Shown in pieces: positions 1 to 20,719 of a stretch of DNA of 20,783 nt. A program made the translations under genes and the position numbers. A model generated the notes under the pieces. That model saw nothing but the letters and a program-made list of their open reading frames with translations, was not told the origin of the DNA and made no database searches. The stretch lies in UHGV virus genome UHGV-0270338; one strand, written 5' to 3'. The stretch comes from a virus. Every line of letters begins with the position of its first letter. The stretch's first letter is position 1.

Positions 1-244
1 CTGATGTCCGGCGGTGCTTTTGCCGTTACGCACCACCCCGTCAGTAGCTGAACAGGAGGGACAGCTGATAGAAACAGAAGCCACTGGAGCACCTCAAAAA
101 CACCATCATACACTAAATCAGTAAGTTGGCAGCATCACCCCCTGATTGTGTTCCCTTCAATTGATCTATTATTTTTATCAGTTATTTAGTATGCTTACCT
201 TATCAATTAAAGTTTCATAATTACAAAATTGGGTCAGTATATAA

Positions 245-1336: not shown

Positions 1337-1388
1337 CCAAATGGTCATAACTACCCCCCTTAAAATACGAAAGTAAATAATTAGAACA

Positions 1389-1417
1389 TGTGCTTTGAGT
1401 TAAACACTCAAAGCACA
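1389..1417 (-). terminator. Perfect 11-bp stem hairpin (tgtgctttgag / ctcaaagcaca), probable terminator in convergent intergenic region
   Basis: Inverted repeat read directly; the T-rich run is on the minus-strand side, so more likely terminates the Tfa transcript than the acyltransferase. Confidence 0.35.
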
Positions 1418-1564
1418 AAATAAAAAGCGCTGCCATTGTCTATTTTGCCCCTTCTCACGCTCGTTTTTTATTTTATAATAATACACCTCCAGTTACACTT
1501 TTGTAATTAAAAGCATGAATCATCAATTAGTTCATCCCTTAATCTAACTCTTCCCCAAACGTTC

Positions 1565-2152
1565 CTATTCTGGTTCGGTGGGCCAGTTGATATTTGGCGC
1601 AGATGAAGTATCTATAGCCTGAATGGCTTTTATGTACTGCACCCACGCAATCAGACTTTCCTTATCCCCATCACTGATGATGTCCAGTCGCAATTCTGTC
1701 TGCCAGAGACTTATTTTCTCCTGCGCTTCAGCCAGTAACGCAGCCTTCTTCTGTTCAGCGGCTTCTACCTCGGCAACGTGCTGCGCGTCAGTATCTGTTA
1801 CCCACTTTTTGCCGTCCCACTTTTGATATGGTCCTGATGGCGCAACAGTTGTGTACCCCTTCCTGACTGGGCCGATATAATCTATAGTGGAAGATGAGGT
1901 ATCATCGGTAGAATATACCGTTTCACCACGATGATCTTCATCCTGTCGCCATCCGGTGCCCGTGAACATAAAAACCTTTCCAGCAACCATTTCACCTGGA
2001 TCAACATCTGTTGAATTACCCGGCATACTGACGCCAGCGTTAATATATTCATCTGACCAGCCAGCATATTCCATGGTCACTGCATCGTAATAAAAACAAC
2101 GAATATCACCGGCCTGCGTTGCCAGACCATTTTCATCAAAGACAGGTTTCAT
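1565..2152 (-). CDS. Phage tail fibre assembly protein (Tfa)
   Basis: 195 aa; EDHRGETVY, YQKWDGKKWV and C-terminal DTSSAPNINWPTEPE motifs match the Tfa family; start overlaps tail fibre stop by 1 nt. Confidence 0.7.
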   Translation of the reverse strand: MKPVFDENGLATQAGDIRCFYYDAVTMEYAGWSDEYINAGVSMPGNSTDVDPGEMVAGKVFMFTGTGWRQDEDHRGETVYSTDDTSSSTIDYIGPVRKGYTTVAPSGPYQKWDGKKWVTDTDAQHVAEVEAAEQKKAALLAEAQEKISLWQTELRLDIISDGDKESLIAWVQYIKAIQAIDTSSAPNINWPTEPE

Positions 2153-3234
2153 TACTTTGCCCTCACCAAGAAATTGAATGCGATGTTGCGCGGTCGGTTC
2201 TCGTTTGCAATTGATACCGATGGGTCTTTTCCAGCGCTGAAGAGAATACTTTGAGCAACAGTGCTTCCGCCTGGCTGGAGGTTCGTTAAGTTTTGTGCCC
2301 CCCCAGAATAAAGCGCACCAGAATTTGTAGTATTCCCAAAATATTGAACAAAACCGACTTCACCAGTGATATTTCGGATGGCATCCACCTGAGTACTCAG
2401 CAATGCCCTTCCTGAATCGACCCCACGACCATCATCCCAGATACGCGGGAATTCGCCTCGAGCTTCGGGAAGTGTAAGTCCAGGGAACACCTGTGCAAGT
2501 TTGGGGTATACCGCAGCAGAAAATGACGCGCCGTTAAATTTTAAAAACACCATGTCAGACCATTCGCTTATGACCGTATTCGGCATTGCTGCGGAGGGCC
2601 AGAAGAATGGGACACCGATAGCTGGCGCACCAGACCCCATCCCCACATCTGCTGGCGTTGGCTTATATTTTTCAGAAAAGAGCTTATACTTCCAAATCGT
2701 AGTGTTGCCGGTTACAGCACGAATGATTGGTGTTGCTCCAGCAGAATTTACTAGCGGAAGATAAATCTGCACTCGTTGTTTTGATACGGAATCATACAAC
2801 AACGTTAGCACCATTCCGTAATCAATCCCAAAATCCGGGTCTGTATTACCGCCGTATGCATAAAAACCAGAACTTGTTGCGCTCGAAAGCAAGTTAATGT
2901 TAGAACCAGCGATATTTATACCGATACCCAGGTCCGTTAAATCAAGGTTTTCGAGAGCCGTTTTCACCGTGCCATCCGATTTGATATCGCCAAATGGATT
3001 TTTGCGGCTTAACAGCAGAGCACGAAGCGCGGTAAGCAGCTGGTCGTGCCGCTCCTTCTCCAGGCTGGCACCGGATGCCTCCACCACGCTGCAAAGCTCT
3101 TCCTGCAACATGTCAAAGTAGTCATCATCCAGATCGGTGGCTGGCGTGCCGGTCTGGGGGTTACCACGGGTAAAACCGTTCTTACCCGCGCCGAACTTAT
3201 CCTTCTGCGCGGTTTTCGTGTCTATACGATGCAT
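2152..3234 (-). CDS. Phage tail fibre protein
   Basis: 360 aa; conserved tail-fibre N-terminal region and C-terminal ...[18 protein letters not shown] typical of side tail fibre tips; immediately upstream of Tfa. Confidence 0.65.
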
Positions 3235-3237
3235 GGA

Positions 3238-3822
3238 TTACTCCGGATATTTAAAAATTACGTAGGTATGCGACGGGCAGAGTTTGTTAAGCACACATTC
3301 GACAACGGTGTCGCCCCAGATACGCAGTGCGGAATCACAGGGATCGCCACATGTCATCCAGGTGGTGTTGGTGGCGGCTGGCATGTTGATCTGCCAGTAA
3401 TACCGCCATTCCGGCGCATTCACCGCGTCAGTACAGGCCGATGAGCAGGTGAACGTGCTTTTGTCGTATCGCGTGATGGTGGCATCTGGTCTGCCCAGGG
3501 CAGCAAGCTGTGCAAGATAAAAATCCTCGTTGATGCCACCCGACAGGTTAACCTTCGCATCCAGCCGTTGCTGGCGCTGGCGAAGGGTCTGTGTCCCTGT
3601 AGGAATACATTCATCCGGCAGGCCGCACAGACACTCCCAGCGGTTTATCAGTTCGGTGGTGGTGCGCGGATCCAGCTCCCGCATCAGGGCATCCGCACGC
3701 TGATGAACACGGGTTAATGACGGTGCCGCACCGGCAATCGCCGGATCGCTGGCTGACCACGCCGGACCGGGCGGCAGCAGTGCCGACAACAGACGGATGT
3801 AATCATCGTTTGTCACGTCCAT
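3238..3822 (-). CDS. YmfQ-like phage tail protein (DUF2313-type)
   Basis: 194 aa; position between baseplate J-like fragment and tail fibre as in e14/Mu-like tail modules. Confidence 0.55.
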
Positions 3823-4208
3823 GAAATCGTCCCCAGAACCGCCAGTTCATTTTTTGCAATGGAGATATTGTCCGCCGGTGCAAGCAACTGATGGCTGTAT
3901 TCCCCGTTCGCACCGGAAATCGCCTCACTGATACGCGATACCTTCAGTTCTCCCTGCGGATAACCATCACGCAGCAGGAACGAACGCAACTCCGCGGTAA
4001 TGGCAGCCCGTATTTCCGGTGTGTCCGGCGTCACGCGGATATGAAAATCCACTTTATGCGCCACCGGCCTGAATACATACAAATCAGAGCCTGCCACCGG
4101 GGCCAGTGGCTCAATGTGTTGTCTTGCCGCCGTTTCCGTTGATTCTTCCGGAATGGGATTAATCAGGTCACTGCTGGCAATCATCACACCGACAGTCCCC
4201 GTTCCCAT
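3813..4208 (-). pseudogene. Baseplate J-like protein, C-terminal fragment only (5'-truncated)
   Basis: 131 aa ORF resembling only the C-terminal part of baseplate J proteins; no upstream baseplate, tube or sheath genes; the upstream space is occupied by opposite-strand genes. Confidence 0.45.
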
Positions 4209-4258
4209 CCAGTGGCGGTAACCGACCTTGCAGGGTCGATATGATGAGGAGCAGCAAA

Positions 4259-4622
4259 ATGGCTAGCGAACGCAGTACTGATGTGCAGGCATTTATCGGG
4301 GAGCTGGACGGCGGCGTATTTGAAACCAAAAATCGGCGCAGTTCTCAGTGAAGTCGCTTCCGGTGTGATGAACACGAAAACCAAAGGTAAGGTCTCGCTC
4401 AACCTAGAAATCGAACCGTTTGATGAGAACCGAGTGAAAATCAAACACAAACTCTCATATGTTCGCCCGACTAACCGCGGGAAAATTTCCGAAGAAGACA
4501 CCACCGAAACGCCGATGTATGTCAATCGCGGTGGTCGCCTGACTATTCTGCAGGAAGACCAGGGACAGTTGCTGACTCTTGCCGGTGAACCTGACGGAAA
4601 ACTCCGCGCAGCAGGTCGTTAA
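4259..4622 (+). pseudogene. yfdP: yfdP-like gene interrupted by a frameshift in an A5 tract
   Basis: ATG at 4259 with strong SD (gaggag) opens a frame that stops after 30 codons; the 4281..4622 ORF continues in the adjacent frame; deleting one A from aaaaa (4328..4332) fuses them into about 120 aa. Confidence 0.45.
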
Positions 4623-4687
4623 TATCGTTTTTAATTAACTGATTATTTATCTCATCACTGAATATCTTTATATAGTGAGGACTTATT

Positions 4688-5512
4688 ATGTCTCAGAACT
4701 TAGACGCAACCGCAATTAATCAAATCCATGCCCTTATTTCTGCTCAGGGTGTTAATGAAATTATCAGTAAGATTGGTGCCGATGCTGTGGCATTGCCTGA
4801 GAATTTCCGCATTCATGATCTGGAAAAATTTAATTTAAATCGCTTCCGTTTCCGTGGTGCGCTTTCCACTGCCAGCATCGATGATTTTACCCGTTATTCT
4901 AAAGATCTTGCAGATGAAGGCACCCGCTGCTTTATCGATGCTGATAATATGCGTGCCGTCAGTGTGCTTAACCTAGGTACTATTGATGAACCAGGTCACG
5001 CAGATAACACCGCCACACTCAAACTGAAAAAGACAGCACCGTTCTCTGCTCTGTTGTCTGTTAACGGCGAGCGTAACTCCCAGAAGTCACTAGCAGAATG
5101 GATTGAAGACTGGGCCGACTATCTTGTGGGCTTTGATGCTAATGGTGACGCTATTCAGGCAACAAAAGCGGCTGCGGCTGTCCGTAAAATCACGATTGAA
5201 GCAAACCAGACCGCTGATTTTGAAGATAATGACTTCAGCGGCAAACGCTCCCTGATGGAGTCTGTCGAAGCGAAGACCAAAGACATTATGCCAGTGGCAT
5301 TTGAATTTAAATGCGTTCCGTTTGAAGGTCTGAAAGAACGTCCGTTTAAATTACGCCTCAGTATTATCACTGGCGATCGTCCTGTACTGGTTCTGCGCAT
5401 TATTCAGCTGGAGGCGGTGCAGGAAGAAATGGCTAACGAATTTCGTGATCTGCTTGTTGAGAAATTCAAGGACAGCAAAGTAGAAACCTTTATTGGTACT
5501 TTCACCGCCTGA
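4688..5512 (+). CDS. yfdQ: YfdQ-like DUF2303 prophage protein
   Basis: 274 aa, same length as KplE1 (CPS-53) YfdQ as I recall it; followed by yfdR/S/T-like genes in the same order. Confidence 0.65.
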
Positions 5513-5639
5513 TTTCATTACTGCAAATGCCCCTGCGGGGGCATTTATGGAAACGTAATTTACTCAATAATCGCCGGATGGTGAGGGATTCTTTTTACCA
5601 GAATTCAGCGCGGTGCAGCGCATATACGTGGAGAACAAA

Positions 5640-6176
5640 ATGTCATTTATTAAAACTTTTTCCGGGAAGCATTTTTATTATGACAGGATAAATAAAGACG
5701 ACATCGATATTAACGATATCGCGGTTTCCCTTTCAAATATCTGTCGCTTTGCCGGTCATCTTTCGCACTTCTACAGCGTCGCCCAACATGCGGTTCTTTG
5801 CAGCCAGCTGGTGCCGCAGGAATTTGCTTTTGAAGCGTTAATGCATGATGCAACAGAAGCGTATTGCCAGGACATTCCCGCACCACTGAAACGCCTTCTT
5901 CCTGACTATAAACAAATGGAAGAAAAAATAGACGCCGTAATCCGTGAGAAATACGGGTTACCCCCAGTTATGAGTACGCCCGTGAAATATGCCGATCTCA
6001 TCATGCTGGCAACCGAACGCCGCGATCTCGGGCTTGATGATGGCTCTTTCTGGCCTGTACTGGAAGGTATCCCGGCAACAGAGATGTTCAACGTGATTCC
6101 ACTGGCACCGGGCCATGCCTACGGGATGTTTATGGAACGCTTTAACGAGTTATCGGAGTTACGCAAATGCGCATGA
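5640..6176 (+). CDS. yfdR: YfdR-like HD-domain phosphohydrolase (5'-deoxynucleotidase family)
   Basis: Start moved to ATG 5640 (SD ggaga 5 nt upstream) giving 178 aa; HD-type motifs (HFYSVAQHA, LMHDATEAY). Confidence 0.65.
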   Translation: MSFIKTFSGKHFYYDRINKDDIDINDIAVSLSNICRFAGHLSHFYSVAQHAVLCSQLVPQEFAFEALMHDATEAYCQDIPAPLKRLLPDYKQMEEKIDAVIREKYGLPPVMSTPVKYADLIMLATERRDLGLDDGSFWPVLEGIPATEMFNVIPLAPGHAYGMFMERFNELSELRKCA

Positions 6177-6529
6177 ATGTTTTCGAAATGGAAGGGTTTC
6201 TTCGTGGGAGATGTGTACCGCGAGATCTGAAAGTAAATGAAACAGATGCTGAATACCTGGTGCGTAAATTCGATGCGCTTGAAGCTAAATGTGCAGCACA
6301 GGAAAACAAAGTAATACCAGTGTCAACTGAACTGCCACCAGCAAATGAAAGTGTTTTGTTATTCGATGCTAACGGAGAAGGCTGGCTAATTGGCTGGCGT
6401 TCTCTCTGGTACACCTGGGGACAAAAAGAAACCGGAGAATGGCAGTGGACATTTCAGGTCGGGGACCTTGAAAACGTCAATATCACTCACTGGGCAGTAA
6501 TGCCAAAAGCACCGGAGGCTGGAGCATAA
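6167..6529 (+). CDS. yfdS: YfdS-like (DUF551) prophage protein
   Basis: 120 aa; synteny after yfdR-like; start overlaps yfdR stop. Confidence 0.5.
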   Translation: MRMNVFEMEGFLRGRCVPRDLKVNETDAEYLVRKFDALEAKCAAQENKVIPVSTELPPANESVLLFDANGEGWLIGWRSLWYTWGQKETGEWQWTFQVGDLENVNITHWAVMPKAPEAGA

Positions 6530-6834
6530 TGACCACTTTTACCGACAAAGAACTGATTAAAGAAATTAAAGAGCGTATCAGCAGCCTTGACGTGCGAGAC
6601 GATATTGAGCGCCGTGCTTATGAAATCGCACTCCTATCTCTGGAAGTAGAACCAGATGAACGCGAAGCTTATGAATTATTCATGGAAAAGCGTTTCGGTG
6701 ACTTAGTAGATCGTCGGAGAGCAAAAAACGGCAATAACGAATACATGGCATGGGATATGACTCTCGGTTGGATCGTCTGGCAGCAACGAGCTGGTATCCA
6801 TTTTTCAACAATGTCACAGCAAGAGGTGAAATAA
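6529..6834 (+). CDS. yfdT: YfdT-like prophage protein
   Basis: 101 aa; synteny; overlaps neighbours by 1 nt on each side. Confidence 0.45.
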   Translation: MTTFTDKELIKEIKERISSLDVRDDIERRAYEIALLSLEVEPDEREAYELFMEKRFGDLVDRRRAKNGNNEYMAWDMTLGWIVWQQRAGIHFSTMSQQEVK

Positions 6835-7184
6835 TGGAGCCATACAGCCTCACACTCGATGAGGCCTGTCATTTTCTCAAGATATCCAGACCGACTGCCA
6901 TTAACTGGATACGCACAGGGCGTCTTCAGGCAACACGCAAAGATCCCACTAAGAATAAATCTCCTTACCTCACAACACGACAAGCCTGCATTGCGGCTCT
7001 TCAGTCTCCGCTGCATACTGTCCAGGTGAGCGCGGGTGATGGCATAACAGAGGAAAGAAAATGTCACTCTTCCGCAGAGGTGAAATATGGTACGCCAGTT
7101 TCACATTGCCGAACGGTAAAAGATTTAAACAGTCTCTTGGAACAAAGGACAAAAGGCAGGCGACAGAACTCCATGACAAGCTAA
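6834..7184 (+). CDS. xis: Excisionase (Xis), P22-type
   Basis: 116 aa from ATG 6834 (SD gaggtg upstream; TAATG overlap with yfdT stop); HTH-like [26 protein letters not shown]; 3' end overlaps int start as in lambdoid int-xis modules. Confidence 0.6.
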
Positions 7185-8224
7185 AGGCTGAAGCATGGCG
7201 GGTCAGCAAACTTGGTGAAATACCTGATATAACGTTCGAGGAAGCGTGTGTCAGGTGGCTTGAAGAGAAAGCACATAAAAAATCACTGGACGATGACAAA
7301 AGCCGGATCGGATTCTGGCTTCAACATTTCGCAGGAATGCAACTAAGAGACATTACTGAATCAAAAATTTATTCAGCAATGCAGAAAATGACGAACCGGC
7401 GTCATGAGGAAAACTGGAAACTCAGGGCAGAAGCATGCAGAAAAAAAGGGAAACCTGTTCCAGAATACACGCCAAAACCAGCGTCCGTTGCAACGAAGGC
7501 TACGCATCTTTCATTTATAAAGGCCCTACTAAGAGCCGCAGAGCGTGAATGGAAAATGCTGGATAAGGCACCAATTATTAAAGTGCCTCAACCAAAGAAT
7601 AAACGGATCCGCTGGCTGGAGCCCCATGAAGCACAAAGGCTGATTGATGAATGTCCGGAGCCATTAAAGTCTGTTGTTGAATTTGCACTGGCAACAGGCT
7701 TAAGACGCTCGAACATCATCAACCTTGAATGGCAACAAATAGATATGCAGCGCCGGGTGGCATGGATAAACCCGGAAGAGAGTAAATCAAACCGCGCAAT
7801 TGGCGTTGCGCTGAATGATACTGCATGTCGCGTATTGAAAAAACAAATCGGGAATCATCACCGTTGGGTATTTGTGTACAAGGAAAGCTGTACCAAACCA
7901 GACGGAACGAAAGCGCCAACAGTAAGGAAGATGCGGTATGACGCAAACACAGCCTGGAAAGCGGCGCTGAGACGGGCTGGTATTGATGATTTCAGATTTC
8001 ACGACTTGAGACACACCTGGGCAAGTTGGCTGGTTCAAGCCGGAGTCCCGTTGTCAGTTTTACAGGAAATGGGAGGCTGGGAGTCTATCGAAATGGTTCG
8101 TCGATATGCTCACCTTGCACCTAATCACCTTACCGAACACGCACGGCAAATAGACTCGATCCTGAATCCATCGGTCCCAAATTTGTCCCAGTCAAGAAAT
8201 AAGGAAGGTACTAATGATGTGTAA
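7061..8224 (+). CDS. int: Tyrosine integrase, P22-family-like
   Basis: 387 aa; catalytic signature ATGLRRSN (R), FHDLRHTWA (HxxR), VRRYAHL (Y); stop codon 2 nt before the tRNA-Thr-derived att repeat. Confidence 0.85.
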
Positions 8225-8225
8225 C

Positions 8226-8257
8226 TTATTGATTTTAATGGTGCCGATAATAGGAGT
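8226..8257. repeat. att repeat: displaced copy of the tRNA-Thr 3' end (19 nt) plus 11 nt of downstream flank
   Basis: ttattgatttt-aa-tggtgccgataataggagt matches 20628..20662 (ttattgatttt-cttga-tggtgccgataataggagt); the 19-nt part is the reverse complement of the tRNA 3' end ACTCCTATTATCGGCACCA. Confidence 0.85.
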
Positions 8258-8343
8258 AAAACACTCGATTAATCTCGTGTTAATGCCATCACCTACGACC
8301 ATTACTAATTGATTGAATCTTATAGAAAAAATTATCATTTTCT

Positions 8344-9759: not shown

Positions 9760-10473
9760 CTATTCCTGTTTAAAGGCAGGAGTAATAGTGTCTTCACCTT
9801 CACTACTTGATTTTTCAGTGTTAACACGTTTTTTCATATTAGCCCCGATGTTCTTAGATGGCTGTGTTTTGATAGCTACAGTGTTTACAGTGCCATAAGA
9901 AACGAGCCTGATCTGCTCAAAGCTAAGATCAAATACTAGGGATTCGCTTGCCTCTTCTGTGTATTCGATGCCTGTTAAAACAACGTTCTCAAAAGTTTTA
10001 TTTTCTGTAACAAGAAGAAAAGGCTGTCTACTGTCCATAATCTGATTCAGATAATCAATCGCTAATGATCTTCTGTTCCCGTTCACCCCTGCACTCTTTA
10101 ACAAGCCAGGATCGCTTTTAATCGGTGTTTCAGTGATCCTTCCTTTAAGAGAAAACTTATTGTTTTTAATTTGAACGTGATCCGATACATTAGCACCATT
10201 TTCTACGGGGTAGCTTGTAACATCTGCCGAACGTCTCACGTTCACATCGTCAACACTGTCAAAGGCCAGTGCCATATAATTTTCATAAACGTCATTACCA
10301 GAAGATGCCAGCCCACTGGTAACAATAGCAAATCCATTTTCTCCTTTTGTTTTATTGGCTTTGCTATTTTCGTTTTTTGTAGAGTTTATATCTTGTTCTG
10401 CTTTGTAAACAGCCTGAACGTGTTGTTCTGGAGTATTTGCTGCACGTATGGTTAAAATCCCGGCGGTCGCCAT
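9760..10473 (-). CDS. Hypothetical protein, last gene of the structural-like operon
   Basis: 237 aa ORF, Ser/Thr/Asn-rich; no recognisable motif. Confidence 0.45.
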   Translation of the reverse strand: MATAGILTIRAANTPEQHVQAVYKAEQDINSTKNENSKANKTKGENGFAIVTSGLASSGNDVYENYMALAFDSVDDVNVRRSADVTSYPVENGANVSDHVQIKNNKFSLKGRITETPIKSDPGLLKSAGVNGNRRSLAIDYLNQIMDSRQPFLLVTENKTFENVVLTGIEYTEEASESLVFDLSFEQIRLVSYGTVNTVAIKTQPSKNIGANMKKRVNTEKSSSEGEDTITPAFKQE

Positions 10474-10506: not shown

Positions 10507-12345
10507 TTACCCGCCGTTGGATTGTCCTGATAAGCTGGTTAATGTTAATGATTTCAAGAAGCTATCCCGACTTGCTCTCGCTGTAAAATCCACATAATCG
10601 CTTAATCTGGATGTGTCAGAATTAATAGTAAGAGGAACTTCTGTTACCACTTCAAATGTAGGATTCAGATTAAACACAGGAGATAAATTATAAGCCGGAG
10701 TTGTCATTGCAAGATTATTTAAAGCACCCTGTTTGAGATTGGTTATCGGTGCTTCGCTGACTGACATTTTTACATCTGACACAGAAGAAGCATTATCATC
10801 GAAAAGCAATCCCTTAAGAGTGTTAAAGAAAGAATGACTATTATCAGGTGTAGTTGTTGCAGTGCCAGCGCCTTTATATTGGTCAGGAACGAGCTTAGAA
10901 AGATGCTGTTTCATCCCTTCATTGCTTAATGGCGGTGCATCTCCCATATTTTTCTGAATAGCATCTGTCTTATCATCATTACGATTAAACCAGTTTACAA
11001 TCTTCATAATGGCTTCAAAAAGACTTCCTGACGCTTCTCCTAGCCTTGTAAAATACGGAGTGAGATTAGAAAGGTTTTTCATAAACTCTTCCGTTACTTT
11101 TGGATCGAGAGATTTCATAAAGCCGTCTACGAATGCTACTTGTCTTGCATCAGAAAGCTGTGAAAGCTGTCTGTTTAGTTCTCTGAATTTAACAATAGAG
11201 TCTTGCTGTGTTTCTGTTAGCCATTTTCCAGAGGCTTTTTGCTGATTAATACTTTCTTGTACATCTTTAACGGAACGTTGCCAATATTTTGACGTAAGCA
11301 TCAAATCATCGCCCAGGTCTTCTAAACGTTGTCCAATTTGGGAGTCTGAAAACCCTTTTTTCATCATTCCATTAACAGCCTTAGAAATTAATCCGGCTGG
11401 ATTATCAGCAAATTTTTTAAGGTCGCTCTTGTTAATAACACCGATGTTTAGAAGTTCATTAATAGCGTTATCACCGCCTTTCCATTCGCCGCCTTTACCA
11501 GTTTTTTTATCGACTACATATTCAGCTTCACTATAGGATTTTGCGGCACGTTCCCTAACATCTTTCATCTGATCCAGGTATTTCCTAGCCCCTTGATCAC
11601 CCATCATAGAGTCAACGCCGTTTCTATAGGCCCATTCTGTAATGTTGTACATCTGGTTAACGTCTACACCGCCAAGCCTTGCACGTTGAATTAGCTCACC
11701 TTGTGTCTCTGCGTTAGCGAAACTGTTACTAACAAACTCCGACGCTTTACTAACAGCCATCACGCCAGCAGCCGCTGTAGCGCCTCCAAATAACAGAGCA
11801 CCCATCGTGGCGGAATTCCCTGATCCTCCTCCCTTAACGGGGGCTAATTGAGCTTTTCTGTTGCCATTAATCTTACGTTGTTGCTGTTGTAGGCGTTTCA
11901 TCTGACTATTCATACGTGCAAGCGAGATAGCCCCTTGCTCATATTGTTTTGCTATCTCTCTAGCCTGTGCAATAGCTTTGTATTGTTCCGCTACAGAGAG
12001 GCGGTGCATTGCACTGATAGAGCTTGACACATCAAGGAGTTTTAATTCTGCTTTCTCTTTACGTGCTGCTATTTGTTGCTGTTGCCTTGCCTGTGCTCTT
12101 GCTGCGGCAGCTTGTGCTCTTTGATTTTGTTTTTCGGTTTTAGCTTTCTGTTGAGCAATCTTATCTACTTCACTTTGTGCTTTCTTATAGCCTTTAGTGA
12201 CATTATCAAACCTTAATTTAGCGGGCTTGATGTTTTCTGCGAATTCCTTTAAGCCTGTAATAGAGTCTTTCGCTTTTTTCAAGCTGTCTTTATCTACACT
12301 AAATGTTACTGTGTTCTTAATTTTAGAAGTGTTAATTTCTAACAT
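10507..12345 (-). CDS. Coiled-coil protein with Gly/Ala-rich hydrophobic segment (tape-measure-like or scaffold-like)
   Basis: 612 aa; N-terminal Q/A/K/R-rich helical region (AQAAAARAQARQQQQIAARKEKAELK), then GGGSGNSATMGALLFGGATAAAGVMAV; no Walker A or other catalytic motif seen. Confidence 0.5.
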   Translation of the reverse strand: MLEINTSKIKNTVTFSVDKDSLKKAKDSITGLKEFAENIKPAKLRFDNVTKGYKKAQSEVDKIAQQKAKTEKQNQRAQAAAARAQARQQQQIAARKEKAELKLLDVSSSISAMHRLSVAEQYKAIAQAREIAKQYEQGAISLARMNSQMKRLQQQQRKINGNRKAQLAPVKGGGSGNSATMGALLFGGATAAAGVMAVSKASEFVSNSFANAETQGELIQRARLGGVDVNQMYNITEWAYRNGVDSMMGDQGARKYLDQMKDVRERAAKSYSEAEYVVDKKTGKGGEWKGGDNAINELLNIGVINKSDLKKFADNPAGLISKAVNGMMKKGFSDSQIGQRLEDLGDDLMLTSKYWQRSVKDVQESINQQKASGKWLTETQQDSIVKFRELNRQLSQLSDARQVAFVDGFMKSLDPKVTEEFMKNLSNLTPYFTRLGEASGSLFEAIMKIVNWFNRNDDKTDAIQKNMGDAPPLSNEGMKQHLSKLVPDQYKGAGTATTTPDNSHSFFNTLKGLLFDDNASSVSDVKMSVSEAPITNLKQGALNNLAMTTPAYNLSPVFNLNPTFEVVTEVPLTINSDTSRLSDYVDFTARASRDSFLKSLTLTSLSGQSNGG

Positions 12346-12359
12346 TTAAAATCCCCTTA

Positions 12360-12563
12360 TTAATCATTTTTACCACCTTCTTTACTTAAGAAATGGTGTA
12401 GAGCCTGATCAATACTCTCGTTTAGTCTGAACATACGGGCTTTTACTCCTTCATATGGAACATCTAAGAGAGAACATAGATATTTCAGATTTAACAAGCC
12501 TCTTGAATCATTAGCATCTAAATGTACGTGTACACCATTTTTTGATTTCAAAATCACTTCCAT
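12360..12563 (-). CDS. Hypothetical small protein
   Basis: 67 aa; SD gaggtga upstream of ATG; directly follows an internal terminator. Confidence 0.4.
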   Translation of the reverse strand: MEVILKSKNGVHVHLDANDSRGLLNLKYLCSLLDVPYEGVKARMFRLNESIDQALHHFLSKEGGKND

Positions 12564-12587: not shown

Positions 12588-12632
12588 AAAAATAAATAAA
12601 AAAAAGGCGAAGCGTGAATACACGCCACGCCT
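12588..12632 (-). terminator. Rho-independent terminator immediately after the capsid-like gene
   Basis: Minus-strand RNA forms aggcguggcgug-uauu-cacgcuucgccu followed by an 8-U run (plus-strand A-run 12590..12604). Confidence 0.6.
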
Positions 12633-12649
12633 CTATTACACGTTAAATA

Positions 12650-13678
12650 TTATTTAACAGTGATTTGAACGGAGAAGCCTACACCGTGGTTTACAACCAT
12701 CTGGCTATTCTCTGTAACAACGTTAACAGCATCACCACGAGAAGATTCATAGCTATAGCTGTACACCTCAGCAGGAGCGGCATTAATCAGTTCAAAGGTG
12801 CTGGAAGCAGCCCCGTAGATGTTCTGATATACATTAGAGCCTTTAGCAAACTTCGGAACCGCTACAGCGTCTGCGGTCATATGTGCAAGGTGTAGCGGAT
12901 CTACCAGTTTAATAACATCAATGTTAGTTCCTGGAATAGTGAACGCTGTCACCCCCGGTAGCAGGTCACGACGCTGGTACACAACATTTCCCTCTTCCAG
13001 TGGGCTTACATACTGGAATGCGTTTGCCATACCCGCAGAGAATCGAATTGCAGAGAAGGCTTCCGGCTTACAGAAAACAACAATACGCTCTACAGCAGCC
13101 GCCTGGCTTTGTGCTTTCTCGATAATGTCAGTAGCAATCTGATCAAATTCTTTAAAAATCTTCGTGGTGTCAGTGCTGGAGGCGTTAACAGTGGCTTTCA
13201 TAGGTGTCACATTAAACAGCTTGCCCCACTCGATAAGAACATCATCAGTTTTCGGGGTGTAGGTGCGACCACTAAACAGAGAAGCAGCCAATACGCTCTC
13301 TTTTGTACGCTGATACGCTACGTGGTGTTTAGCAACATAGTCAGCATAGATATCAGTGAGTGTTTCCTGAAAATCAGTGCCAGGCTTACGCTTGCCTTGC
13401 ACGTCCTGCGGTTTGATCAGGTCTTGCCTTAAAAAGTACGGGATTTCAATAAGATATTCTTTACCTTGTTCTCGCTTAGTAACGTTGTGTTCAGAAGAGA
13501 AACGAGAGGTTTCTTTGTTGAACAGAGATTCGTTGCTTTCGACAAGCTGGGAAACAGCTACTTTATGAGATGTAACCCCTACAGAATCCGTAAAATCAAG
13601 AGTAGAGAGCAGATAGTTTCTAGTGCTATGAGCCTGGAAAAGCGGAGCTAAATCAACGTAATCATTACCTAGAATCAT
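12650..13678 (-). CDS. Putative HK97-fold major capsid-like protein
   Basis: 342 aa; segment RIVVFCKPEAFSAI...MANAFQYVSPLEEGN resembles, from memory, the conserved region of podovirus T7 gp10-type capsid proteins; followed by a strong terminator as is typical for a major structural gene; no signal peptide. Confidence 0.45.
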   Translation of the reverse strand: MILGNDYVDLAPLFQAHSTRNYLLSTLDFTDSVGVTSHKVAVSQLVESNESLFNKETSRFSSEHNVTKREQGKEYLIEIPYFLRQDLIKPQDVQGKRKPGTDFQETLTDIYADYVAKHHVAYQRTKESVLAASLFSGRTYTPKTDDVLIEWGKLFNVTPMKATVNASSTDTTKIFKEFDQIATDIIEKAQSQAAAVERIVVFCKPEAFSAIRFSAGMANAFQYVSPLEEGNVVYQRRDLLPGVTAFTIPGTNIDVIKLVDPLHLAHMTADAVAVPKFAKGSNVYQNIYGAASSTFELINAAPAEVYSYSYESSRGDAVNVVTENSQMVVNHGVGFSVQITVK

Positions 13679-13696: not shown

Positions 13697-14059
13697 TTAA
13701 GAAGTGAAAACAGAGTGGAACCCTTCAAGCTGGAAGCCTTTTTTAATTAATGCTGTTTTTGCTGCTTCACTTACAGCATTCAGCGCATCAGCTTTGATGC
13801 AGACAAGGCCAGCATTGCTACGTAGCACATCTACAGGCTTGTTGTCTCCAGCCGTTAAAAACTCACTCATAACAACATAGATATCATCTCCTGATACATA
13901 TTTAGCGCCAGTGCTGGTGATCAAGTCGCCGCATTCAACATCAGCAGGAAGAGAAGCAAAAACCTTGCTTTCTACAGAGGCAAACGGATCAGTACAATAA
14001 CTTACAATATCTGTGAAAGTCTTTCGAACTGGAAATAGAGTGTCTAAATCAATAATCAT
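13697..14059 (-). CDS. Hypothetical protein (possible head accessory, decoration or scaffold protein)
   Basis: 120 aa; immediately upstream of the capsid-like gene, start overlaps stop of preceding ORF. Confidence 0.35.
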   Translation of the reverse strand: MIIDLDTLFPVRKTFTDIVSYCTDPFASVESKVFASLPADVECGDLITSTGAKYVSGDDIYVVMSEFLTAGDNKPVDVLRSNAGLVCIKADALNAVSEAAKTALIKKGFQLEGFHSVFTS

Positions 14060-14268
14060 TTAGTAATCTCCTTAGCTTTTAATTTGATTAATTCATTAAG
14101 GGAAGGTGTAGACGGAGAAGAAGGAGAAAAATATTTTTCAACACAACGTTCCACTTCTTCGACAGAACACCCAGCGTATTTAGCTACCATTTCGGTAATT
14201 TGTGGATTGATCTTTAGCATTTCATCGCGATACTTGATGATTTGCTCTTTATCATTTAAAAACAACAT
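14056..14268 (-). CDS. Hypothetical small protein, first gene of operon B
   Basis: 70 aa; translationally coupled (ATGA overlap) with the next gene. Confidence 0.35.
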   Translation of the reverse strand: MLFLNDKEQIIKYRDEMLKINPQITEMVAKYAGCSVEEVERCVEKYFSPSSPSTPSLNELIKLKAKEITK

Positions 14269-14303
14269 TTATATAAACCTTGTTACCTTGTTTAAAGTAA
14301 GAA

Positions 14304-14323
14304 ATACAACTTTTAAGTTGTAT
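14304..14323. promoter_or_regulatory. Perfect palindrome ATACAACTT-TT-AAGTTGTAT, candidate operator at the operon B promoter
   Basis: 9-bp inverted repeat with 2-bp spacer between the upstream terminator and the first ORF of operon B. Confidence 0.4.
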
Positions 14324-14335
14324 AACGGGCAAAAT

Positions 14336-14365
14336 AAAAGGCAGCATTTAGAGCCGCCTTTTATT
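14336..14365. terminator. Bidirectional hairpin terminator separating operon A from operon B
   Basis: aaaaggcagc-atttaga-gccgcctttt, flanked by A-run and T-run. Confidence 0.5.
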
Positions 14366-14392
14366 AACTTGTACCTATGTAATTACCCTATG

Positions 14393-14420
14393 TTATGCAT
14401 ACTCCAAGATGTATGCATAA
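14393..14420. promoter_or_regulatory. Two copies of palindromic octamer TATGCATA (ttatgcatac ... gtatgcataa), candidate operator
   Basis: Inverted pair of 10-mers, each containing a self-complementary TATGCATA. Confidence 0.35.
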
Positions 14421-14611
14421 CAAAGGAAAAAAGAGGTAATAATGACACTTAAGGAGGAGGAGAAGCGGGGAGCGGAGATTTTACTCCCCTTTAACGACAA
14501 GAAGAATTTTTAATATCGAACCAATAAAGGAAAAATAATCACCCTATATAATTATATTAACATACAATAGATGAAATGTCAAGATATTTTACAACTTTTT
14601 TGTTGCTTTTT

Positions 14612-14974
14612 TTATTCTTCTGTGATAACGGCTAAGCGTTGAGCGAGTTCGATAAGGCCATCTCCCACATAGCGAACATCAGATTCAATATCTTCTATCC
14701 AGTTTGATAGCTCCCATATCTGATCGGCTGTCAGGTATGCGTTCTCACGCTTACAGAGCATCTCTACACGCTTAGAGAGGTGCTCAAAGGCATTTACAGC
14801 TAAATCCCAGTGTTTAAACGCCTCATTAAGTGCCGCTGGCGTATTTTCTTTATATGCATCAAGTTCAGCGCGGTTTAAAGGCAGGAGGTAATCATCCTCA
14901 TAATAATTAATTAGTGAGTAAATTGTATCATACGTGTTTTTGTTCATATTAAAAGTCTCCATAGTGATCATCAT
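14612..14974 (-). CDS. Hypothetical helical protein
   Basis: 120 aa ORF; likely true start at internal ATG (MNKNTYD..., ggag 9 nt upstream). Confidence 0.4.
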   Translation of the reverse strand: MMITMETFNMNKNTYDTIYSLINYYEDDYLLPLNRAELDAYKENTPAALNEAFKHWDLAVNAFEHLSKRVEMLCKRENAYLTADQIWELSNWIEDIESDVRYVGDGLIELAQRLAVITEE

Positions 14975-15772: not shown

Positions 15773-16429
15773 TTAAAATGGAATATCAAAGTCATCATAC
15801 ACATTTGGGTAATGCTTAGAAAAATATGCCTCAATACCATTTGGTAGCTTTAACCTGTGCTTATAGGCTAACGATGTTGCAAATTCTATAAATGATGCTC
15901 CTCCTGTTCTTTTGTCTTTCTTCTGGATGATAAGAGAGGCAAAATTCTCTAACACATCCTCCTCATTATCATTAGCTACCTTTTCACTTGATGAAACAGG
16001 TGTTTCTTCCGTCTCCCACGGTAAAGGCGTATCCCAATCATCATCAAGAACATCAAAAGAAGACTCTTTATTATCTTCCGTAGGGGGAAGCTGATCAGGA
16101 ACAGCTTTAACAGTAGCTTCTTGTTGTGTCTGGGCTTCTTGTCTAGCTTCTTCTTGTGGAATATCTACCACTTGATAGACATTAGAACTTCCTGGTCGTG
16201 CATCTTTTATAATTAATCCCATTTCGAGCAATTTCTTAACCCTTTCCTCTGCTGCTCTTGGTGTTATGCCAAAAACATCGCCTATCTTAGCGTAAGAGGG
16301 AAATGCACGATCAAACCCTTTCAGATAGCAGTAAAGGTTTTTAGCACTATCTGTAAATTTATGCCCGTTTACTTGGCTTATTTTTAGAATCCACATAGGA
16401 ACTTTTACAAATTGTTCTTCATTAATCAT
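15773..16429 (-). CDS. Winged-helix DNA-binding protein with acidic linker and SSB-C-terminal-tip-like tail (candidate replication initiator / host replisome recruiter)
   Basis: 218 aa; N-terminal HTH-like segment (FPSYAKIGDVFGITPRAAEERVKKLLEMGLI); long D/E/Q-rich linker; C-terminus ...YDDFDIPF, close to the E. coli SSB tip DDDIPF. Confidence 0.55.
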   Translation of the reverse strand: MINEEQFVKVPMWILKISQVNGHKFTDSAKNLYCYLKGFDRAFPSYAKIGDVFGITPRAAEERVKKLLEMGLIIKDARPGSSNVYQVVDIPQEEARQEAQTQQEATVKAVPDQLPPTEDNKESSFDVLDDDWDTPLPWETEETPVSSSEKVANDNEEDVLENFASLIIQKKDKRTGGASFIEFATSLAYKHRLKLPNGIEAYFSKHYPNVYDDFDIPF

Positions 16430-16853: not shown

Positions 16854-17616
16854 AAAAAACTCCTTATTCAGTTAAAAGAAATAAAACACCTTGCAAGCCT
16901 GACGGCTTCAAAGTGCATTGATTTTGATTATTTAGAGAAGAATGTTTTTCTGTCCCTCTAATACCTATTATTACATATAAAGAAACATTTGTCAATACCT
17001 TTTCATAAAAAATCTGATCTTTTTCATGCACTTACATTTTTTCTTAGCTATTCGTGCTCTTCTGTGTAGTGCTATTCTTCATTATCCGCTAAAACGCTCT
17101 AAAACGCGTTCTAACGAGATTTTGATAAAAGCAATACATTGCCTTATCTAATGGCTGTTTAGCTCGCCAGAGGCTTATTTAAGGGGCTTATTTTGTATTT
17201 GTTAGGTATATGAAAAGGTAATGGTAAATATAAAACAGAGAGTCACTTTATAAAACGCTCTGTAAAGACCTGTAGTGAGCTTATTATATGTAGGCAATGC
17301 GTTTCCATTCCCTACCCTGCTTAATGCTGTTAGAGAAGCATTTAGACCCCTTATTTTTAATTACCTAAAGTATCCTCTATACATCTCTGTTATGAAACAC
17401 CTCTGAATCCTTCATAAAACACATTATGACGCAAAGAACACTTTTCTAAGGTGATTCCCTTCCTGAACTCTGTTTCTTGCGTCAGAGAGCTACAGAGAGC
17501 TTATAAAGCTATTATTAATAATAAAGTAGATAAAGTAAGTAAGATAACTAAGATAGATAAGATTAATAAGATCAGAATTCTCTTTCGGTGTCGCCTCTGG
17601 CTTTTCCACCGAAAAC

Positions 17617-17740
17617 AATTACACGACTACAGAATGTGGAAGTGGAATTGTATTGAGGCTTAGTGAAATTACACGAGGAAAGCAGAGTGTAATTGAGCTT
17701 TAGCCGCTCTCTCTTCGAGTAATTACACAACTACAGAGAA
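17617..17740. repeat. Array of AATTACAC-containing repeats, including palindrome AATTACAC-N12-GTGTAATT (17667..17694)
   Basis: aattacacgactacaga (17617) and aattacacaactacaga (17721) are near-identical 17-mers; perfect 8-bp inverted repeat between them. Confidence 0.5.
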
Positions 17741-17995
17741 TAACGAGAGTTATTAAATGTAGGAGGGTAATTAAGAGTTAGAGAGAGTTAACACGTAAGC
17801 AATCAGTATGATTGGTTAGGTGATTACTCTTCTGCGCACAGCGCAATAGTATTTCTTCGTGGGCGTTACCGCCACGATAGTTACACGAAGAAAGTAACGC
17901 TTTGCTTTCGGTGTGAGCGGAACGGGCCAGCCAACGTAGCCCGAAAGGTAGCGGAGTAAGGCTGCTTGCCAGAGAGTGAAGCTAACGCCGGAAGG

Positions 17996-18180
17996 CAAAA
18001 GATCATATAAATAAATATATAATATTATAATTTAATAAGTAATTTAATAAATGATCTAATAGGTAACAGAATTCTGTGGGGGTGTCTAACAGAATTCTGT
18101 TAGGGTGGGGTAACAGAATTTTGTTAGGGTACAAATCTCTTTAAAAGTTAAGATTAACAGAATTCTGTGGGGGTAGCTCA
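17996..18180. promoter_or_regulatory. Origin-like region: roughly 65 bp of almost pure A/T followed by four iterons TAACAGAATT(C/T)TGTnnGGGT
   Basis: Iterons at 18064, 18087, 18111, 18155 (spacing 23, 24, 44 bp); each contains the palindrome ACAGAATTCTGT; no ORF support. Confidence 0.55.
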
Positions 18181-18224
18181 CAGTGACCTACCGTTACTAC
18201 CAATCATCACATAGCACTCACTCT

Positions 18225-18700
18225 GTGTAATGCCTTTCTATGTGTGTGCCATAATCCCCTATATTCCCTGTGTAAATCATAGAATAATGCTCTCTATTCC
18301 CTGTGTAATTCCCTACTAAAAAATCCAATGAAAAATGGCTTCAAAGTGCAATGTTAGCTTTCTTCACTTTTACATCACTTTCGCAAAGCCTTGTGTAATG
18401 CGGTTTACAGAGCACCATCAGAAATTGTTGGCTAAAAATTGTTCTGCTTGTTTCTGAACGAGTTTTCTCGTTTGTGCAAATTTTAAAATTTATTTTGTTT
18501 TTACAGCCTTATTTCGTGTAATGCGTGGCATAGCAAGCCCTTTTCTTGTGTTGTCAAGACATTTGGCAACGTTCAAACATCTGTTTAGAAATGCCAAATT
18601 GTTGATCTAACAAATAAACCTGTATAAACAGAACACCATTTAATCTATCCCCCTGTGTATCCATTAGGCATACCAAATGAATACATCTAAATCGTGTAAT
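18225..18700. repeat. Dispersed same-orientation GTGTAAT heptad motifs (about 6 copies) upstream of the serine recombinase gene
   Basis: Copies near 18225, 18269, 18302, 18392, 18517, 18694; two share the longer context tattccctgtgtaa(a)t; opposite orientation to the ATTACAC copies left of the iterons. Confidence 0.45.
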
Positions 18701-19333: not shown

Positions 19334-19349
19334 TGCCTCCTTGATATTT
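19324..19349 (+). terminator. Hairpin terminator overlapping the recombinase stop codon
   Basis: ggaggc-gtaat-gcctcc followed by ttgatattt. Confidence 0.4.
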
Positions 19350-19660
19350 GGGGATTCTGGATTTTCCAGATCGGGGGGCGCTGATCTTCGCGTTAAACAT
19401 TGATCACGTTTGCGCCGATTTCAGATAAAAAGGCAGCTATTAAGCAATACGTAACTTTTACAATTAGTGAAATTATCTAAAACACAAGTTATATAGATGA
19501 GAAAATGAAATATTATCTTGAACAAATCAAACAAAACAACACATCATCTTGTTGACACCATGCAAAGTGAATAGTAAGCTATTATATGTGAAAATTTGCA
19601 CATTGCATGCAATAAAAAATAAATGATACCTTGTTGTTGTTAAATCAATAGGGGGTATCT

Positions 19661-20038: not shown

Positions 20039-20627
20039 CGTGTTGCCTCTGTATTCATATGAAAATTAACAAGTTACATACTACACAGGGAGACTACGCA
20101 TAAAACACAATACAAGTAAAGATACATTTTCAAGACAATAGGAGCCATAAAGCGCCTTTGATGGTTATACCAAAAAATAAGCGCCGTAGGCGTATCCACT
20201 AAAAGGGCTTTTTCACAAAAGCTATGAAGTCTTAGCAGTTCTTCTCTTATCAGGCACCCGTTGTACTCCGGTGGACGAAACCGTGCTAGAGCTTGATTCT
20301 TTCCCGATCAAGTTAGGTTTTGAAGAGGTGGGCTTTAATCCACTATTGCACTTAAAACTCTTCCCATCATTTAGCCTGTTTATCCTCTGCAACGTCTCAC
20401 GACGTGTGGCATCATTGGACACCGCGCCAGGTGTGGAACATCTTGCTAAGAGTTTTGGTAGAAGGTTTAGAGACGGTGGCACGTCTTCCAGCTTCAAAGG
20501 AACTTGTTACGAGGTTGAGCCTGGGAACTACTCGCCCATACGTGTTACACTACCAAAGCCCATAACAACGTATAGGCGTTTGTAAGTGATAACAGAAGAT
20601 ACAATTTCTTAGAGAAGTTAAGCTAAG

Positions 20628-20662
20628 TTATTGATTTTCTTGATGGTGCCGATAATAGGAGT
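20628..20662. repeat. att repeat at the intact tRNA-Thr 3' end (right boundary of the second element)
   Basis: Matches 8226..8257 apart from a 2 vs 5 nt spacer difference. Confidence 0.85.
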
Positions 20663-20719
20663 CGAACCTACGACCTTCGCATTACGAATGCGCTGCTCTA
20701 CCAACTGAGCTATATCGGC
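20644..20719 (-). tRNA. thrW: tRNA-Thr (anticodon CGU)
   Basis: Reverse complement reads GCCGATATAGCTCAGTTGGTAGAGCAGCGCATTCGTAATGCGAAGGTCGTAGGTTCGACTCCTATTATCGGCACCA: 76 nt, cloverleaf-compatible, anticodon loop CGT, encoded CCA. Confidence 0.9.

Follow-up and report, generated by a model that had tools for sequence, protein, structure and literature searches.

We describe a 12.4-kb integrated mobile element in UHGV virus genome UHGV-0270338, a stretch of viral DNA of 20,783 nucleotides that was analysed at its full length and is called the window below, with a focus on a 612-amino acid (aa) protein encoded on that element. By homology, this protein is a tape measure protein (TMP) of the PHROG 16051 family. 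We think that the element is probably a satellite comparable to PLE of Vibrio cholerae, that its helpers are large virulent phi92-like myoviruses (Stephanstirmvirinae: Justusliebigvirus and Phapecoctavirus), and that it would assemble chimeric tails with its own TMP. This reading is built on homologies, gene order, a mosaic within the TMP, the boundaries of the element, its distribution, purifying selection and a mimic of the end of the helper's terminal repeat.

Identity of the 612-aa protein

The open reading frame (ORF) runs uninterrupted through 612 codons from position 10507 to 12345 on the minus strand, with the plus-strand reading full of stops, and the ORF reported by an initial annotation of this DNA is present at exactly these positions. 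It is kept in hundreds of genomes, and the ratio of nonsynonymous to synonymous substitution rates (dN/dS) of 0.12-0.20 indicates purifying selection; given this conservation and selection, the ORF is, as judged from its sequence, more than a product of chance.

A Pfam scan of the 612-aa protein returned no match. Comparison with PHROG families retrieved PHROG 16051, “tail length tape measure protein”, with E=1.3e-53, and a tblastn search against 50,697 phage records retrieved only the TMP genes of virulent Stephanstirmvirinae myoviruses with genomes of about 145-150 kb, namely phi92 and other Justusliebigvirus phages and Phapecoctavirus phages such as phiWec188. The phi92 counterpart, gp134 (659 aa), is collinear with the 612-aa protein from the first residue to the last (pairwise alignment of residues 1-612 with 1-659), and the two have in common the N-terminus, a Gly/Ala hydrophobic segment at the same position, the motifs NGVDS, KDVRER, WKGGD and LGDDL, and a C-terminal LTL..SGQS..GG. 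A profile of the TMP family also matched chain V of PDB entry 21vq, “Phi92_gp134”, with E=4.8e-75. The 2026 cryo-electron microscopy study of phi92 assigned gp134 as the trimeric TMP, of which residues 631-656 could be resolved within the baseplate, and gp135 as the hexameric tube initiator (PMC13450770). The family is a small one and accounts for 73 of the 50%-identity clusters among 1.84 billion representatives. Tape-measure resemblance was the first of the possibilities listed in the initial annotation, and it is borne out by the PHROG 16051 match, the full-length alignment to gp134 and the match to 21vq chain V. The presence of the protein in the tail lumen and its setting of tail length are predicted from this relationship.

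The composition and predicted secondary structure of the protein agree with the glutamine-, alanine-, arginine- and lysine-rich N-terminal region and the Gly/Ala-rich hydrophobic stretch that had been pointed out earlier. Residues 51-170 contain 19% A, 17% Q, 12% K and 8% R, with only 3 Gly/Pro in 115 residues, and long helices were predicted at residues 46-111, 118-136 and 142-167 by AlphaFold2 with a 38-sequence alignment. Only the secondary structure of this model was used because its mean pLDDT was 51, and when this low-confidence, helical model was used for a Foldseek search, nothing in the PDB was matched at E<=0.001. The hydrophobic stretch, GGGSGNSATMGALLFGGATAAAGVMAV, occupies aa 172-198 and is the sole hydrophobic window in the protein (Kyte-Doolittle 19-residue maximum of 1.6, at aa 180-198).

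Whereas gp134 belongs to a virulent phage with a 148-kb genome, the element TMP belongs to a 12.4-kb integrated element in which genes for tube, sheath, chaperone, hub and fibre are missing. It is 47 aa shorter than gp134 and 39 aa shorter than the phiWec188 TMP, and it is without the Gly-rich insert of gp134 and approximately 35 residues of the gp134 helical region. The same division by length was seen more widely, in that the TMPs placed in bacterial genomes by source name or Mb-scale contig are all 596-626 aa long, and the three phage-context TMPs that were checked are 634, 651 and 659 aa long.

Gene neighbourhood and parallels with phi92

In both the element and phi92, the gene next to the TMP gene encodes a tube initiator. 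The tube initiator of the element, located 3' of the TMP gene, is 61% identical to phi92 gp135 over aa 11-215 (205 residues, E=2e-82), and a family search against the PDB matched known tube initiators. Its nearest relatives are in Justusliebigvirus (61%) and Phapecoctavirus (52-56%), with rV5-like phages far lower at 27%. When the tube-initiator alignment was searched through genome contigs, it was found in a single metagenome-assembled genome that is phage-like in appearance. The initial annotation's statement that there are no tail genes here is thus incorrect, as there is a Dit-like tube initiator gene (9760-10473; PF21821, E=1.5e-29) and the 612-aa protein is itself a tail protein.

The capsid-like gene that the initial annotation placed upstream does lie upstream in the direction of transcription (12650-13678) and matches Pfam Phage_cap_E with E=2e-14. 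The capsid protein it encodes is only distantly related to any phage capsid protein, with 22% identity to phi92 gp124. Together with its neighbours it forms a structural block in the order 70-aa ORF, 120-aa ORF, capsid gene, terminator-like hairpin, 67-aa ORF, TMP gene and tube initiator gene. This order parallels that of phi92 gp123 (cement), gp124 (capsid) ... gp133, gp134 (TMP) and gp135 (tube initiator), with the eight intervening phi92 genes (neck, sheath, tube, chaperone) missing from the element. On the 5' side of the TMP gene, the 67-aa ORF shows no detectable similarity to the phi92 chaperones gp132 and gp133. The hairpin suggests, from its sequence and position, high expression of the capsid gene and attenuated read-through into the 67-aa ORF, TMP and tube initiator genes.

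Pfam and PHROG scans of the ORFs examined across the element, with Pfam alone used for seven small ORFs of 52-91 aa, did not detect a gene for a portal, a terminase, a protease, a tube, a sheath, a hub or a fibre.

Features linking the element to phi92-like helpers

Three independent features, as far as sequence comparison can tell, point to phi92-like phages as the helpers: the relatives of the tube initiator given above, a mosaic within the TMP, and a match to the end of the phi92 terminal repeat.

The mosaic was seen by comparing regions of the type A TMP, i.e., that of the element type found in the window, with the TMPs of phi92, phiWec188, and the type B and type C elements introduced below. 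The N-terminal 45 aa are 69% identical to phi92, 58% to phiWec188 and 44% to each of types B and C. Over the body (aa 46-170 and aa 201-460, respectively), identities are 19% and 31% to phi92, 22% and 30% to phiWec188, 70% and 71% to type B, and 29% and 25% to type C. For the C-terminal 42 aa, identities are 38% to phi92, 64% to phiWec188, 52% to type B and 74% to type C. At the nucleotide level, the first 87 nt of the TMP gene are 86% identical to phi92. From these regional identities and the 87-nt match, the ends of the TMP are phage-like and the middle belongs to the element lineage. The N-terminus of a TMP is the head-proximal end in the virion. Both ends are likely, going by homology, to contact other tail parts, with the C-terminus lying in the baseplate (PMC13450770).

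The third feature is non-coding and lies at 19339-19395, just 3' of the element's resolvase gene. This 57-nt site resembles the final 57 nt of the direct terminal repeat of phi92, which is 343 bp long. The two sequences have 39 ungapped identities in 57 positions, including TGATATTTG, the 15-mer ATCGGGGGGCGCTGA and CGCGTTA, and they cease to be similar precisely where the phi92 genome physically ends (...CGCGTTA). In 2,000 Markov shuffles of the element, the best score had a mean of 28.0, a standard deviation of 1.1 and a maximum of 34, which gives a z of about 10 for the observed match. The spaced motif of the site was found once in the window and in 0 of 100 shuffles. All fetched type A copies that cover the region carry the 15-mer ATCGGGGGGCGCTGA, and in type B the flanks of the site are kept at the same place. 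In its exact form, the terminal-repeat-end motif does not occur in the Klebsiella-type, type C or Pantoea elements. When a 90-nt stretch with the site was compared with 2.3 Gb of phage DNA, 39 of 40 matches were to Justusliebigvirus and fell at positions 318-347 of records whose numbering begins with the physical genome end. We regard the site as a candidate packaging or terminase site copied from the helper; alternatively, it may be a co-opted early regulatory site.

Boundaries and distribution of the element

Imperfect direct repeats at 8222-8262 and 20624-20667 delimit the 12.4-kb element, the right one overlapping the 3' end of a tRNA-Thr gene. The type A element was found in 486-544 of 5,426 complete E. 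coli genomes (about 9-10%) and was always chromosomal. In E. coli strain NC101, the same cargo is located at tRNA-Gly with a different integrase. A second type, type B, is present in approximately 181 genomes with synteny kept, and its products are 63% (TMP), 59% (tube initiator), 63% (resolvase) and 98.6% (integrase) identical to those of type A. The type B capsid protein is strongly diverged, and BLASTP finds nothing between it and that of type A.

Further types were obtained from viral-contig predictions with a Klebsiella TMP cluster (P0122) and a mixed E. coli/Citrobacter/Serratia/Enterobacter cluster (P0127) as queries. Every locus read has a core of a ~72-aa protein, a ~120-aa protein, an E-type capsid protein of ~343 aa, a ~65-aa protein and the TMP. 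Types A, B and C and the Klebsiella-type loci are syntenic at 30-63% TMP identity. The replication genes differ among types, being a helix-turn-helix (HTH) Rep, a DEAD-like helicase or DUF6945, and in type C (cluster P0127; L044 11909-12580 on the minus strand, L046, L049 and L050) a gene with an EAL domain (cyclic di-GMP phosphodiesterase-like) occupies the tube-initiator position. TMPs of 595-630 aa that source names or Mb-scale contigs assign to Kluyvera, Enterobacter, Raoultella, Cronobacter, Citrobacter and Serratia genomes were also found, where they are known by the proteins alone; this taxonomic survey is based on cluster membership and a second protein search.

Not all forms are integrated. 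A relative from Pantoea (L051) is a 14,065-bp contig with ParA, a 185-aa tyrosine recombinase and no large integrase, and it is circular, as its ends overlap by 30 nt and, when joined, make one ORF. Contigs of ~14.1 kb were found in several independent samples. A copy truncated by an insertion sequence (IS), comprising a small ORF, the TMP and the integrase, is carried on IncY and large conjugative plasmids. Contigs of 10-13 kb from the first protein search that had been considered as candidate free forms turned out to be chromosomal fragments, and scans of viral contigs with the capsid protein and TMP of the window returned only near-identical E. coli prophage-type predictions.

Proposed mechanism and its difficulties

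By analogy with PLE and its helper ICP1 in Vibrio cholerae, infection by a helper would cause the element to excise and to replicate by means of its Rep-like protein and iterons. It would express its own capsid protein, presumably forming small heads suited to 12 kb, as well as its own tail-core proteins. A trimer of the satellite TMP and a hexamer of the tube initiator would then nucleate on baseplate hubs made by the helper, and helper tube and sheath would polymerise around the satellite TMP to yield a chimeric tail. As the TMP is 47 aa shorter than gp134, such a tail is predicted to be slightly shorter than that of phi92, by roughly 5-8 nm or 1-2 of 24 tube rings. The helper-like N- and C-terminal peptides of the TMP might act as adaptors to helper parts, with the divergent body distinguishing satellite tails from helper tails, and the copied terminal-repeat end might allow packaging of the element by the helper terminase. 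What is inferred in this scheme is that the element depends on a helper, that its proteins enter tails and alter their length, that its capsids are small and that it is packaged. The initial annotation's wider idea of a helper-dependent element with a capsid gene fits the evidence.

Several observations weigh against it. There is no experimental or sequence sign of induction, packaging or transfer of the element, and when metagenomes and viral contigs were scanned with exact motifs for E. coli forms that are free or packaged, chromosomal fragments alone were recovered. A capsid protein only 22% identical to that of the helper would have to assemble on the helper portal, which is hard to account for. 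Neither a scaffold nor a small terminase was found in the Pfam and PHROG scans, and chaperone profiles and phi92 gp132 and gp133 did not match any element ORF. Type C is without a tube initiator. The tail-length prediction assumes that the Gly-rich insert of gp134 contributes to length. Regarding the terminal repeat, only its right boundary is mimicked, with no mimic of the left boundary found, and the database search with the 90-nt stretch gave E of about 0.8 per match, so the claim rests on the restricted comparison and not on the database search. Lastly, several E. coli genomes have IS3 or IS5 insertions within the TMP gene or its neighbours (e.g., L033 8712-9985 and L038), which indicates that some copies are decaying.

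A broader form of the proposal, which we advance tentatively and hold somewhat less firmly than the proposal for the element itself, is that a widespread Enterobacterales satellite family with integrative and plasmid forms, so far unrecognised, parasitises the large virulent myoviruses of the Stephanstirmvirinae, which have been employed in phage therapy. Its members would use small private E-type capsids and chimeric tails built with a private shortened TMP and tube initiator, and would be packaged via the copied helper repeat end; the TMP termini would have been exchanged repeatedly with helpers, and the body would mark tails as “satellite”.

Alternative explanations

The alternative that fares best, although we consider it unlikely, is that the element is not transferred at all and acts in defence by poisoning assembly. 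In that case, the TMP, tube initiator and capsid homologues would be dominant-negative decoys that assemble together with parts of an infecting phi92-like phage and lead to dead tails and heads, and the bacterial population would be protected. A poison subunit would require just such a divergent body with helper-matching termini, the Pfam and PHROG scans of the element yielded no packaging genes, the element is common in E. coli, and tail assembly is a known defence target, as exemplified by Tai, which targets the central tail fibre (PMC11364771), and Rta of PLE11 (PMC12987554). However, known tail-interference proteins are small inhibitors and not full-length structural homologues (PMC12987554, PMC11364771), and PADLOC matched the element to no defence-system model. 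Poisoning would also leave the Rep-like protein and iterons, the syntenic and complete capsid gene, the plasmid form with ParA and the copy of the helper genome end unneeded. As satellites usually interfere with their helpers, some poisoning of assembly would be compatible with the element being a satellite.

We find it improbable that the element is a decaying remnant of a temperate phi92-like relative, with the TMP gene as a functionless leftover. The element does hold only a subset of virion genes, copies interrupted by ISs and the truncated plasmid-borne copy exist, and the element adjoins another cryptic prophage-like region (window positions 1-8224). Nevertheless, the compact gene set and its order recur at 30-63% TMP identity in several genera and in both integrated and plasmid forms, and independent random decay would not repeatedly join capsid and TMP genes. 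This recurrent synteny across divergence, together with the intact ORFs and the dN/dS of 0.12-0.20, argues against a decaying prophage. Additionally, the phage relatives of the TMP are Stephanstirmvirinae of ~145-150 kb, as judged from the PHROG scan and the tblastn matches read.

The initial annotation had itself proposed that the protein is a size-determining scaffold that remodels helper capsids in the manner of P4 Sid, which we now regard as very improbable. The capsid gene is close by, the protein has a long helical region, and a small 12.4-kb element would need a small capsid. Yet nothing found here ties the protein to control of capsid size, and the premise of the proposal, i.e., that tail genes are absent, is false. 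The protein shows full-length homology to a structurally verified tape measure, including the baseplate-end peptide at its C-terminus; a strong terminator separates its gene from the capsid gene, and the tube initiator gene is directly 3'. There would also be no need to remodel the helper capsid, because the element brings its own capsid protein.

Finally, we give almost no credence to a TolA-like cell-envelope membrane protein, for which the NCBI name “cell envelope integrity protein TolA” on type C cluster P0127, the single hydrophobic segment and the Ala/Lys/Gln-rich helix might speak, since there is no Pfam TolA match, the likeness is a compositional artefact, and the same type C protein matches the PHROG TMP family with E=9e-98, so that the name looks like a misannotation.

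Comparison with known satellites

Satellite-borne TMPs are already known from PLE, in passing from some phage-inducible chromosomal islands of the capsid-forming kind (cf-PICIs), and from mycobacterial EPIPs. Of these, PLE provides the closest comparison. Vibrio cholerae PLEs carry genes for a TMP, a tail chaperone and a baseplate hub of their own, whose products are 20%, 20% and 41% identical to those of ICP1 and take their place in PLE particles; compared with ICP1, the TMP of PLE is 95 aa shorter and the tails are 10 nm shorter (Nature 2026, PMC12987554). The element described here is likewise small and integrated with a large virulent myovirus as its apparent target. Both have a TMP shorter than that of the helper and an adjacent baseplate-core gene with the remaining tail genes absent, and in both the core protein is far more helper-like than the TMP (61% vs. 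~30% here and 41% vs. 20% in PLE). It is because of this common pattern, a divergent and shorter TMP beside a helper-like core protein with the rest of the tail missing, that we propose chimeric tails. In contrast to PLE, which steals the ICP1 capsid protein and remodels the capsid with TcaP, the element carries its own major capsid protein. No chaperone homologue, small terminase (TerS) or Rta-like gene was identified in the element, and some of its relatives are plasmids. The host and helper lineage also differ, and the element is set beside PLE by description and not by sequence.

Like the element as it is read here, cf-PICIs are enterobacterial integrative satellites with their own HK97-fold capsid protein and a dependence on helper tails, and some have been reported with putative tmp genes (PMC12987554, Extended Data Fig. 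10). Their definition rests on a core of 11 components, among which are terS, terL, portal, protease, HNH, head-tail adaptor, connector, alpA and pri-rep (PMC10085698), whereas Pfam and PHROG scans of the element ORFs examined, with Pfam alone for seven small ORFs, gave only an integrase, a capsid protein and a Rep-like HTH protein, which falls short of that core set. The PICI and cfPICI models of SatelliteFinder treat tail genes as forbidden components (PMC10085698), so SatelliteFinder would discard the element. EPIPs, which are satellites of Mycolicibacterium, have both capsid and TMP genes and altered tail length (bioRxiv 2025; PMC12822802). The element is similar to them in having genes for both a capsid protein and a TMP. 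EPIPs differ in being actinobacterial, with siphovirus helpers, a serine integrase, TerS, scaffold and head-tail adaptors, and longer tails. P4 is, as is proposed for the element, a helper-dependent E. coli element of ~12 kb, and it encodes Sid. Sid is an external capsid scaffold that is unrelated to tail proteins. The P4-like set of sid, psu, delta, epsilon, alpA and the alpha primase-helicase was entirely absent from the Pfam and PHROG scans of the element. By gene content, then, the element is outside the definitions of cf-PICIs, PICIs and P4. In a literature search, which did not cover all journals, neither this element family nor any satellite of Stephanstirmvirinae was found to have been described, and the element is probably a member of an undescribed satellite family.

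Satellite TMPs and chimeric tails were demonstrated only in 2026 and in one system, Vibrio PLE and ICP1. If the reading given here is true, the same strategy would be in use in E. coli, Klebsiella, Enterobacter and their relatives, in approximately one in ten E. coli genomes, and its targets would be phi92-like and Phapecoctavirus phages, both of them often considered for use in phage therapy and biocontrol. With a private capsid, a private tail core and no recognisable packaging genes, a combination that no current satellite definition covers, the family has been missed. With it, the question of why satellites replace the tape measure could be addressed in a tractable E. coli model, and discrimination of tail length and tail identity could be studied, and it might explain some of the unexplained resistance of clinical strains to phi92-like and Phapecoctavirus phages.

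Other features of the element and window

The coordinates of the main features of the element are collected in Table 1.

Table 1. Features of the 12.4-kb element, in order of position in the window. TMP subregions are given in residues of the protein.
Feature	Position	Strand	Basis or remark
Left attachment (att) repeat	8222..8262	+	Direct repeats
Tyrosine integrase, 444 aa	8344..9678	+	PF00589, E=3e-17
Tail tube initiator, Dit-like, 237 aa	9760..10473	-	PF21821, E=1.5e-29
Tape measure protein (TMP), 612 aa	10507..12345	-	PHROG, PDB profile, pairwise alignment
TMP, helper-like N-terminal region	aa 1-45		
TMP, helical Q/A/K/R-rich region	aa 46-167		
TMP, Gly/Ala-rich hydrophobic region	aa 172-198		
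TMP, conserved helical domain	aa 213-390		
TMP, C-terminal baseplate-end peptide	aa 571-612		
67-aa ORF	12360..12563	-	Directly 5' of TMP gene throughout element family; phi92 gp133 position
Strong terminator-like hairpin (9 pairs + T-run)	12609..12633	-	Between capsid gene and tail module
Major capsid protein, lambda-E/HK97 type, 342 aa	12650..13678	-	PF03864 (Phage_cap_E), E=2e-14; phrog_29
120-aa ORF	13697..14059	-	Position of phi92 cement/decoration protein gp123; no homology established
70-aa ORF, first gene of capsid operon	14056..14268	-	Position conserved across family
Sigma-70-like promoter, TTGACA-17-TAATAT, extended -10 TG	14554..14582	-	Consensus match only; ~285 nt upstream of capsid operon
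Three small ORFs, 120/135/91 aa	14612..15761	-	Between replication and structural modules; 135-aa and 91-aa ORFs with weak type B counterparts
Rep-like protein, 218 aa, HTH_36	15773..16429	-	phrog_270 (replication initiation / O-like), E=4e-11; PF13730, E=6.5e-4
Four 22-nt iterons, TAACAGAATTCTGTGGGGGT-like	18062..18174	+	Candidate origin or operator
Serine recombinase, resolvase/invertase family, 179 aa	18794..19333	+	PF00239, E=1e-33
57-nt non-coding site	19339..19395	+	Just 3' of resolvase gene; resembles last 57 nt of phi92 343-bp direct terminal repeat
Right att repeat	20624..20667	+	Overlaps 3' end of tRNA-Thr(CGT), 20644-20719 (-)

Within the structural block, the 67-aa ORF may encode a private chaperone, an inhibitor like Rta or a small protein that binds DNA. 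The 60-67-aa ORFs at this position, which are also present in L035 and L039-L051, have the consensus ..ILKS..GLH..L......LLNL...C.LL......R...FRG.S...A... The 120-aa protein ends in VFTS, compared with ...VVFTS in gp123 and FFTS or FYTS in relatives. An hhalign comparison of the 120-aa family with gp123 was not significant (probability 1.3%), and a PDB sequence search gave no match; as a result, the label “decoration protein” rests only on position and this common C-terminal motif.

Upstream of the capsid operon, a 344-nt intergenic leader (14268-14612, minus strand) contains the promoter at 14582-14554 and a GC hairpin with a T-run at ~14330-14360, and might therefore serve in regulation as a leader or give rise to a small RNA. 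The type B element has a ~1-kb gap where this leader sits. The PF13730 match of the Rep-like protein is under the Pfam gathering score (19.9 vs. 25 bits). An ORF-poor region of ~1.6 kb (16961-18554) contains the iterons and a near-consensus sigma-70 promoter (16995-16967, minus strand), and the same gap is unannotated in NC101 and type B. This region is probably the origin and control region, with a regulatory RNA as an alternative; the Rfam scan detected tRNA only and nothing in this region. The same region contains a second non-coding likeness to phi92, at 17089-17153 on the plus strand, with 48 identities in 65 positions to the reverse complement of phi92 (12019-11955; blastn E=9e-4). In phi92, the counterpart lies just 3' of where gp037 stops, and the transcription boundary there is a convergent one.

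To the left of the element, window positions 1-8224 are occupied by a second, unrelated prophage-like block with acyltransferase, tail-fibre, tail-fibre-assembly and baseplate genes and an integrase at 7061-8224. Since this integrase gene ends at the common att repeat, the two elements are integrated in tandem at tRNA-Thr, and we presume that the block resembles the cryptic prophage CPS-53/KpLE1.

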